NCBI RefSeq assembly: GCF_044647545.1
Contig: NZ_CP172818.1
Origin: Escherichia coli
Lineage (GTDB): Bacteria > Pseudomonadota > Gammaproteobacteria > Enterobacterales > Enterobacteriaceae
Length of the DNA: 64,000 nucleotides
Strand: one strand, 5' to 3'
A program made the position numbers and the translations under genes. The notes beneath the pieces were generated by a model. That model saw only the letters and a list, made by a program, of their open reading frames with translations. It searched no databases and had not been told where the DNA came from. Shown here in pieces: positions 32,307 through 35,000 of this stretch. Positions within the stretch are counted from its first letter, which is position 1, and each line of letters begins with the position of its first letter.

Positions 32307-33161
32307 ATGGTACTGATGATCGTCAGCGGACGTTCAGGTTCAGGTAAATCTGTCGCCCTGCGTGCGCTGGAAGATATGGGTTTTTACTGCGTGGATAACC
32401 TTCCCGTAGTGTTGTTACCCGATCTGGCTCGAACTCTGGCCGATCGCGAGATTTCTGCCGCCGTCAGCATTGATGTTCGTAATATGCCGGAGTCACCAGA
32501 AATATTCGAACAGGCGATGAGTAACCTGCCTGACGCTTTCTCACCGCAACTACTGTTCCTGGATGCCGACCGTAATACCTTAATTCGTCGTTACAGTGAC
32601 ACGCGCCGACTGCATCCGCTTTCCAGCAAAAACCTGTCGCTGGAAAGTGCTATCGACAAAGAAAGCGATTTGCTGGAGCCTCTGCGTTCGCGAGCGGATC
32701 TGATTGTCGATACCTCAGAAATGTCCGTTCACGAGCTGGCTGAAATGCTGCGTACCCGTCTGCTGGGTAAACGTGAACGCGAACTGACCATGGTCTTTGA
32801 GTCTTTTGGCTTCAAACACGGTATCCCTATCGATGCAGATTACGTCTTTGACGTGCGCTTCTTGCCGAACCCGCACTGGGATCCGAAACTGCGTCCAATG
32901 ACAGGTCTGGATAAGCCTGTCGCCGCGTTCCTCGACCGCCACACAGAAGTACACAATTTTATCTACCAGACGCGAAGCTATCTTGAGCTATGGTTACCTA
33001 TGCTGGAAACCAACAACCGTAGCTACCTGACGGTCGCCATTGGTTGTACCGGCGGGAAGCACCGTTCGGTGTATATTGCAGAGCAACTGGCAGACTACTT
33101 CCGCTCGCGCGGTAAAAACGTCCAGTCACGCCATCGTACGCTGGAAAAACGCAAACCATGA
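32307..33161 (+). CDS. rapZ: RNase adapter protein RapZ (YhbJ)
   Basis: 284-aa [75 protein letters not shown]... with P-loop GRSGSGKS. Confidence 0.9.
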
Positions 33162-33430
33162 CCGTCAAGCAAACTGTTGAAATCACAAACAAGCTGGGCA
33201 TGCATGCCCGGCCTGCAATGAAGCTGTTTGAATTAATGCAAGGTTTTGACGCTGAAGTGCTGTTACGTAATGACGAAGGCACCGAGGCTGAAGCCAACAG
33301 CGTTATTGCACTGCTGATGCTGGATTCTGCCAAAGGACGGCAGATTGAAGTTGAAGCGACCGGTCCGCAGGAAGAGGAAGCACTGGCCGCCGTTATCGCC
33401 CTCTTTAACTCTGGTTTTGATGAAGATTAA
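33158..33430 (+). CDS. npr: Phosphocarrier protein NPr (HPr paralog of the nitrogen PTS)
   Basis: 90-aa [93 protein letters not shown]; overlaps rapZ stop by 4 nt. Confidence 0.9.
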
Positions 33431-33575
33431 TCTTCATCACTTTGACATTCAAATCCCTTCAAGCTCCCCCGGCAATAAGAAAAGCGCGTACTGAAATCGT
33501 TATCAATCAACGTCAATTGTACATTTCGTGCGCTTTTTACTTTCAGAAGAACCTTAAGAAAACCTTAAGAAGCAT

Positions 33576-33592
33576 TGTTTAGATTTCGTTTA
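33576..33592 (+). promoter_or_regulatory. Candidate PhoP box (direct hexamer repeat TGTTTA-5nt-CGTTTA) upstream of yrbL
   Basis: tgtttagatttcgttta lies 51-67 bp upstream of the yrbL ATG; matches the (T/G)GTTTA-N5-(T/G)GTTTA PhoP-binding architecture. Confidence 0.4.
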
Positions 33593-33642
33593 AGTTAATC
33601 GACCATACTGGAGATCGTCAGAAAATATTTCCAGGAGATGGC

Positions 33643-34275
33643 ATGATTCGCTTATCTGAACAAAGTCCCCTGGGCACCGGAAGACATCGGAAATGTTATG
33701 CGCATCCGGAAGATGCCCAACGCTGTATCAAGATTGTCTACCATCGTGGCGATGGTGGCGATAAAGAGATCCGCCGTGAGTTAAAGTACTACGCGCATCT
33801 TGGTCGTCGGTTAAAAGACTGGAGTGGAATACCGCGCTATCACGGTACCGTTGAGACGGATTGCGGAACCGGTTATGTCTACGATGTGATTGCAGATTTT
33901 GACGGCAAACCCTCCATTACGCTGACCGAATTTGCTGAACAATGCCGTTACGAAGAAGACATTGCACAACTGCGCCAGATACTGAAACAGCTGAAGCGTT
34001 ATTTGCAGGATAACCGTATCGTGACGATGTCGCTGAAGCCGCAGAATATCCTCTGTCACCGCATCAGTGAGTCAGAGGTTATCCCCGTCGTCTGCGACAA
34101 CATTGGTGAAAGCACATTGATTCCACTGGCGACCTGGTCGAAGTGGTGTTGTCTGCGTAAGCAAGAGCGGTTATGGAAACGATTTATCGCCCAACCGGCG
34201 CTGACTATTGCCCTGCAGAAAGATCTGCAACCTCGTGAAAGCAAAACGCTGACCCTCACTTCGCGCGAAGCTTAA
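33643..34275 (+). CDS. yrbL: PhoP regulon protein YrbL (Mg2+-starvation induced)
   Basis: 210-aa [92 protein letters not shown]... Confidence 0.8.
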
Positions 34276-35000
34276 TCCAGCTGGTGTTGTTGCATAAACG
34301 ACTCACCGCCTAACTGATACATCTGCCGTAAAATCCACGCCTGACGGCTACGCACGTAGCCCGATGGCGCGGAGACTTTGAAACGAAGTGGATTAGGTAA
34401 TACAGCTGCCAGTAATGCAGCTTCCGACCGGGTAAGCTTGCTCGCGGGTTTGTGGAAATAACGTTGTGCCGCAGCTTCGACGCCAAACACACCGTCGCCA
34501 AATTCGGCGATATTCAGGTAAACCGTCAGGATACGCTTTTTGCTCCAGACCGTTTCTATCCCCAGCGTTAATCCAGCTTCCAGCCCTTTTCGAACCCAGC
34601 TACGCCCATCCCATAAAAAGAGATTTTTGGCAGTCTGCTGAGAAATCGTTGAAGCACCGCGAATACGGTTTTCATTGCGCTCGTTGTGCGCCAGGGCTTT
34701 CTCAATGGAAGCGACATCAAAGCCCCAGTGCTCAGGAAATGTCTGATCTTCTGCGGCAATCACCGCCAGTCCCATCCACGGCGAGATTTGATCCATACTG
34801 ACCCAGTCAGAATGTGCCACGTAACGAAAATTGCCATGCAGCCAGGCGCTGACCTGTCGCTCGACCATTACCGCTGAGAAAGGAACAGGCGCAACGCTAA
34901 ACAACGCGATGCCCCCGCCCCAAAAAACGGCGAGGACAACCATTAACCGCAAAAGAAAACGGCGAACGAAACTAAACACCGTTAAGCGGCTTTTACTCAT
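34272..35000 (-). CDS. mtgA: Monofunctional peptidoglycan glycosyltransferase MtgA
   Basis: 242-aa ORF with N-terminal TM segment and transglycosylase motifs ...[16 protein letters not shown]... and [13 protein letters not shown]... Confidence 0.9.

Follow-up and report, generated by a model that had tools for sequence, protein, structure and literature searches.

What sets the expression of yrbL, an Escherichia coli gene with a kinase-like product, and what is the perfect tandem repeat that lies beside a PhoP-like box in its upstream region? In the window analyzed here, i.e., the whole stretch of 64,000 nucleotides of E. coli DNA, the map of open reading frames places rpoN, hpf, ptsN, rapZ, npr and then yrbL in this order on the + strand, with mtgA, elbB and arcB on the − strand beyond yrbL. 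The yrbL coding sequence (33643–34275, + strand) specifies 210 aa with the Pfam domain PF10707 (YrbL-PhoP_reg), and the npr–yrbL intergenic region measures 212 bp. This region and the start of the reading frame were matched in 5425 of 5426 complete E. coli genomes, and in all matched genomes the reading frame is labeled 'PhoP regulatory network protein YrbL'; annotation and Pfam domain agree in assigning the repeats to the yrbL upstream region, where an earlier note had placed them. The genes yrbL (ending at 34275) and mtgA (34272–35000, − strand) are convergent, with stop codons that overlap by 4 nt, and yrbL is mentioned in a paper on 'excludons'. Separately, a 420-bp contig of the Tannerella forsythia ATCC 43037 assembly carries a YrbL fragment 98% identical to that of E. 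coli, probably because the assembly is contaminated with E. coli DNA.

Our answer is that positions 33550–33612 very probably constitute the core of the yrbL promoter, with inputs from two response regulators, PhoP and PmrA/BasR. Both inputs to yrbL are already known, having been described since 2003–2005 and entered in database annotations.

The PhoP box, TGTTTA-GATTT-CGTTTA (TGTTTAgatttCGTTTA), occupies 33576–33592 on the + strand in direct orientation and overlaps the −35 region; the PhoP-like direct repeat of hexamers that had been pointed out earlier is present exactly there. It matches KGTTTA-N5-KGTTTA at 11 of 12 positions, the mismatch being the C that opens the second hexamer, a variant covered by the published PhoP submotifs, (C/T/G)GTTTA. 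By itself, the pattern is no better than chance in the window: allowing at most one mismatch, the 64 kb contain 2 matches where 0.9 would be expected, and a count of 2 is reached in 28 of 100 shuffles. Because the pattern is not rare in the window, the weight of the box must come from its position, its conservation and the literature. As for position, the −10 hexamer CATACT (33604–33609, + strand) agrees in sequence and spacing with the S1-mapped Salmonella promoter and is unchanged in 17 of the 19 sequences aligned, and 11 nt lie between the end of the PhoP box (33592) and the start of CATACT (33604), the same as in Salmonella yrbL. The earlier estimate that the box stands 'about 30 bp before the −10' is right when counted from the start of the box (28 nt) and wrong when counted from its end (11 nt). 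By transfer from the Salmonella S1 mapping, transcription in the window strain would start near 33611–33612 (+ strand); the distance of 2 nt from the −10 hexamer that is carried over in this way is atypical. A Shine-Dalgarno sequence, AGGAG, can be read at 33633–33637 (+ strand) in the conserved 5′ UTR.

A consensus scan of 33300–33800 yielded neither a canonical sigma-70 promoter nor an intrinsic terminator, and the absence of the former fits an activator-dependent promoter without a −35 element. We rejected the idea of an RNA element or known RNA family, the sole Rfam match in 33100–33900 being a sub-threshold snoRNA hit that we regard as chance. Within the 5′ UTR, a near-palindrome, GAAAATATTTCC, lies at 33621–33632 (approximately +10 to +21 relative to the predicted start), just 5′ of the Shine-Dalgarno sequence, and is conserved across genera in the alignment; it could be an operator, or merely an A/U-rich translation context. 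The sequence of E. coli strain 720632 (locus positions ~480–779) departs from the other E. coli within the yrbL −10 hexamer, directly after CATAC; ~30 nt past this divergence point, the annotation has tnpC, a transposase gene of the IS66 family. We read this as an IS66-family insertion that severs the yrbL promoter from the rest of the locus in that isolate.

The literature on orthologous promoters bears directly on the PhoP box. Salmonella yrbL has one S1-mapped, PhoP-dependent start and a single PhoP-footprinted direct box (TCGTTTAGGTTTTGTTTAA) that lies 11 nt from a CATACT −10 hexamer, with the start 2 nt after the hexamer and a 32-nt leader; its promoter has been assigned to 'architecture I', in which the box overlaps the −35 region in a class II-type manner. 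PhoP-P shifts the K-12-type box (tTGTTTAggtttTGTTTAa) of Shigella yrbL in an EMSA, deletion of phoPQ there lowers yrbL mRNA to 0.02, and yrbL is among 11 genes listed as PhoP-regulated by EMSA and beta-galactosidase assays. The reading of the hexamer repeat as a PhoP site is thus borne out by PhoP-dependent orthologous promoters and by the footprint in Salmonella, and by analogy with these orthologs, the window allele should likewise bind PhoP-P and depend on low Mg2+.

Upstream of the PhoP box, the tandem consists of two perfect, abutting 11-mers, AACCTTAAGAA, at 33550–33560 and 33561–33571 (22 nt). The second direct repeat described in the earlier note is therefore real and located at 33550–33571, but the 'a' that was placed between its copies does not exist, as 11 + 11 accounts for all 22 nt. 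A perfect 11-nt tandem of this kind is expected 0.013 times per 64 kb and appeared in 4 of 300 dinucleotide-preserving shuffles. The repeat, which had been called 'of unknown significance', contains in its core an identifiable PmrA/BasR box: CTTAAG-AAAAC-CTTAAG (33553–33569, + strand; the core of the doubled AACCTTAAGAA) has 0 mismatches to YTTAAK-N5-YTTAAK and is the sole exact site in 64 kb. According to a structural study of PmrA, the half-sites CTTAAG/xTTAAT are separated by a 5-bp spacer and are bound by a PmrA dimer arranged head-to-tail; a hexamer plus a 5-bp spacer accounts for the 11-bp period of the tandem. The box lies 6 bp upstream of the PhoP box, or 23 bp from center to center, and in Salmonella, the distance between the PmrA and PhoP boxes of yrbL is ~24 bp.

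PmrA binds to and represses E. coli yrbL (Zwir 2005, as relayed by citing papers), and a study of ExPEC gives the regulators of yrbL as 'BasR, PhoP'. The suggestion that the tandem might be an additional regulator site has therefore held up, with an exact consensus match on the one hand and PmrA repression in the literature on the other; the PmrA footprint on E. coli yrbL is taken second-hand from citing papers. In Fe(III)-adapted E. coli B (2026 transcriptome), basR, eptA and arn are up-regulated and yrbL recurs among the genes with the strongest down-regulation. This drop of yrbL while the BasSR regulon rises is a supporting correlation that provides independent support for BasR input. In a Fur ChIP-seq and transcriptome study, yrbL was described as a previously unreported Fur-regulated operon with an additional O2 dependence, and given this report, BasR may not be the sole cause of the iron-linked fall in expression; the best match to a Fur box in 33431–33700 scored 11/19, which equals the window background.

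To examine conservation, we aligned 19 Enterobacteriaceae sequences over the 140 nt that precede yrbL, namely the window, K-12, six other Escherichia, four Citrobacter, two Salmonella, Siccibacter, Pluralibacter, Superficieibacter, Erwinia and a non-syntenic copy from Enterobacter hormaechei. Between genera, the upstream DNA is mostly scrambled, and islands stand out at fixed spacing: the PmrA box with its AAAAC spacer, the PhoP box, CATACT, and the 5′ UTR with the Shine-Dalgarno sequence. Most of the aligned sequences keep both boxes, their spacing and the −10 hexamer. The form (C/A)TTAAG-AAAAC-CTTAA(G/A) is found in Escherichia, Citrobacter, Salmonella and Pluralibacter, with ATTAAG as the first half-site in E. 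albertii, Citrobacter and Salmonella, and closely related variants occur in Siccibacter (spacer AAAAA) and Superficieibacter (spacer AAAAC). Since the pair of half-sites is found in all genera examined, the two copies predate these genera and do not represent a recent duplication.

Some more distant loci are arranged differently. In Cedecea colo, at ~−125 from the ATG, there is an exact reverse complement of the E. coli PmrA box, CTTAAGGTTTTCTTAAG, so that this PmrA-type 17-mer is inverted and farther from the start codon than the E. coli box; an Erwinia sp. has an inverted version with one mismatch, CTTAAGGTTTTATTAAG, at ~−100. In both inverted 17-mers, the spacer is retained together with the palindromic hexamers. 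The Enterobacter hormaechei locus (positions 400–700) contains a second, non-syntenic yrbL homolog (192 aa, 60% identity) downstream of an apparent tRNA 3′ end, and its promoter keeps the block found further upstream (see below), the PhoP box (TGTTTAATGTCCATTTA) and a −10 hexamer, CATAAT, with a degenerate PmrA box (CTTATGTAAGTCTAAAG).

Within E. coli, K-12 and other strains have both boxes. The window differs from the K-12 yrbL promoter by three core-promoter SNPs, 33571 G→A, 33583 G→A and 33587 T→C (K-12 to window). At 33571, the A of the window completes the perfect 11-mer tandem, whereas the G of K-12 leaves the second copy at 10/11; position 33583 (A in the window, G in K-12) belongs to the spacer of the PhoP box; and at 33587, the C of the window gives CGTTTA, whereas the T of K-12 gives TGTTTA and hence a perfect box (TGTTTAGGTTTTGTTTA, 12/12). 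With a 61-nt probe over both boxes, the exact window allele was found in 1189 of 5409 matching genomes. These three lineage SNPs might retune the affinities for PhoP and PmrA. A stronger version of this idea is that CGTTTA and the G→A change in the spacer weaken PhoP binding, such that the window allele is a poorly PhoP-responsive, decaying site, and in its favor can be counted the one-position departure from the (T/G)GTTTA consensus and the fact that, of the reporters tested in E. coli and Salmonella, yrbL was the weakest and responded least to PhoP. We regard this reading as unlikely, however: CGTTTA occurs in proven PhoP boxes, namely in slyB and in the first half of the Salmonella yrbL box; Shigella yoaE has the same combination, TGTTTA-N5-CGTTTA, and is listed as validated by EMSA and lacZ assays; and the allele is unchanged in those 1189 genomes, which marks it as a stable lineage allele. 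The C variant does not speak for decay; a reduced PhoP responsiveness of the window allele would be a matter of degree.

The tandem itself invites a different objection, i.e., that it serves some regulator besides PmrA/BasR, such as one of the OmpR family or of the RcsB type that recognizes TAAGAA-like repeats, and that the PmrA repression of yrbL is indirect. The AAAAC spacer matches the hexamers in conservation, more than would be needed for the published PmrA consensus; the footprint of PmrA at E. coli yrbL is cited second-hand, and Fur has also been reported to act at yrbL. Nevertheless, this explanation appears highly improbable in view of the exact match to the PmrA box, including the correct 5-bp spacer, the expression of yrbL opposite to that of the BasSR regulon, the lack of any Fur box above window background, and three independent papers that have PmrA directly binding or repressing the yrbL promoter. 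Among the specific candidates considered, the RcsAB (TAAGAATATTCCTA) and MqsA (ACCT-N2-4-AGGT) motifs do not fit the tandem in length or symmetry.

Lastly, a neutral slippage duplication (micro-VNTR) beside the PhoP box with no binding function, for which the full identity of the copies and their head-to-tail junction would speak, as in a recent duplication, is barely conceivable, because the core of the tandem equals the PmrA consensus, because the second copy is 10/11 in K-12 such that the perfect repeat of the window required one SNP and no fresh duplication, because length is constant in sampled alignments among the 5409 matching E. coli genomes, and because Salmonella, Citrobacter, Siccibacter, Pluralibacter and Superficieibacter already have both half-sites, with differing flanks of the first copy (AATATTAAGAA, AACATTAAGAA), which makes the duplication ancient and maintained. 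Each sampled full-length alignment from these genomes covers 61 nt in query and record alike, and no copy-number variation of the tandem was seen; the tandem does not look like a variable-number repeat. We accordingly retain the PmrA/BasR box as the reading of the tandem.

The arrangement of the two boxes resembles that of promoters already characterized. The yrbL genes of E. coli K-12, Shigella flexneri and Salmonella enterica occupy an orthologous locus with the same gene order, npr-yrbL-mtgA, and share with the window the PmrA box, the PhoP box, the 11-nt spacing to CATACT and the 5′ UTR. In these three organisms, the yrbL promoter has been described as activated by PhoP and repressed by PmrA (Minagawa 2003, Zwir 2005, Zwir 2012). 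The closest relative outside yrbL is Salmonella pmrD (Kato 2003), which likewise has a single architecture-I PhoP box at −35 and a repressing PmrA box upstream, and the pmrD and yrbL promoters have been described together as a 'bi-fan' motif. The two differ, however, in that the PmrA and PhoP boxes are ~38 bp apart in pmrD versus ~23–24 bp in yrbL, and in that pmrD is part of a PhoP-activated, PmrA-repressed feedback loop, whereas YrbL has no known feedback on PmrA. The PmrA element of yrbL, with CTTAAG/xTTAAT hexamers 5 bp apart, is the same as that of pbgP/arnB, pmrC/eptA and ugd; PmrA activates these promoters, whereas at yrbL the box lies upstream of the site of another activator and results in repression. 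Like yrbL, the promoters of mgtA, phoP and slyB have a single direct PhoP box over the −35 region, one helical turn from the −10 hexamer in a class II-type arrangement, but yrbL differs from them in its spacing of 11 nt rather than 12, in a start unusually near the −10 hexamer and in the added PmrA input.

These features can be combined into a model of dual regulation. When PhoQ senses low Mg2+ or cationic peptides, PhoP would be phosphorylated, and a PhoP-P dimer would bind TGTTTA-N5-CGTTTA (33576–33592), which would stand in for a recognizable −35 element. PhoP would then recruit RNA polymerase in the class II arrangement ('architecture I' of Salmonella), with transcription starting near 33611–33612. 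Activation of BasS/PmrB, classically by Fe3+, would place PmrA-P head-to-tail on the 11-bp tandem and lower yrbL transcription. In such a circuit, yrbL would be on in low Mg2+ and shut when Fe3+ activates BasSR, the same logic as that of pmrD. To the identity, position and conservation of the boxes established here, the cited experiments on orthologous promoters add PhoP dependence and PmrA repression, and the window allele is expected to behave as its orthologs do. As to how PmrA represses, we infer that the likeliest mechanism is steric, with PmrA hindering either PhoP-P or the contacts of polymerase just upstream of PhoP, given that the boxes are only 6 bp apart and that winged-helix dimers protect DNA beyond their 17-bp cores. 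Repression through an alpha-CTD block is less attractive, since mgtA, a related promoter, reportedly does not need the alpha-CTD of RNA polymerase.

The alignment also contains a third conserved element. The block TTGTACATTTnGTGCkCTTT (33517–33536, + strand) lies 13 nt upstream of the 11-bp tandem, a fixed distance without gaps, and its conservation is close to that of the PhoP and PmrA boxes. It is 20 bp long and asymmetric, and is present in Escherichia, Citrobacter, Salmonella and Superficieibacter, with a variant form in Pluralibacter, Siccibacter and the non-syntenic Enterobacter copy; in each genus with the block, its TGTACA precedes the PhoP box by 57–58 nt. Because the block accompanies the non-syntenic yrbL of E. 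hormaechei, it belongs with yrbL and not with npr, and it is probably part of the yrbL promoter. We consider it possible, if somewhat doubtful, that the block is the site of a third input, i.e., of a regulator in helical phase with PmrA and PhoP, and it could possibly be linked to the reported Fur- and O2-dependence of yrbL.

We tried several other explanations of the block. In the window allele, a long hairpin (33479–33538, z = −3.1) ends in UUUUU, and the block can form its 3′ arm; a role as the npr terminator was nevertheless rejected, as the 5′ arm of the hairpin is not conserved and carries two disrupting changes in K-12, and C. amalonaticus, Siccibacter and Pluralibacter have canonical terminators of their own upstream of the block. 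In E. coli, the consensus scan of 33300–33800 found no canonical npr terminator. At the npr end of the region, a perfect palindrome with 11-nt arms (TGATGAAGATT/AATCTTCATCA) spans the npr stop codon at 33418–33439. A small ORF was likewise rejected, since the TTG/ATG-TAC-ATT frame runs into TAG at codon 4 in two Citrobacter and has no Shine-Dalgarno sequence. There is no second copy of the block in the window at ≤3 mismatches, and none was found in E. coli genomes at the sensitivity of blastn, which is a weak test. Judged by eye, the block lacks the GG doublet of sigma-54 promoters, has a spacing off by one from a marbox, and does not convincingly resemble an MlrA half-site or the sites of OmpR, CpxR, ArcA, CRP, Fis or Zur. 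The RstA box was also rejected: 8 of the 12 specified positions of its consensus, TACATNTNGTTACA, which we confirmed from the literature, match the block, and the second TACA is absent. The block is a lead and not a finding.

Taken as a whole, the yrbL region is a textbook-style two-input promoter, and its recognition as such carries little significance beyond correct annotation. What the present analysis adds is the identification of the tandem, the observation that the PmrA box and its spacer are as constrained as the PhoP box, and the flagging of an extra conserved block. This block offers a cheap entry point for studying how the expression of yrbL is set.
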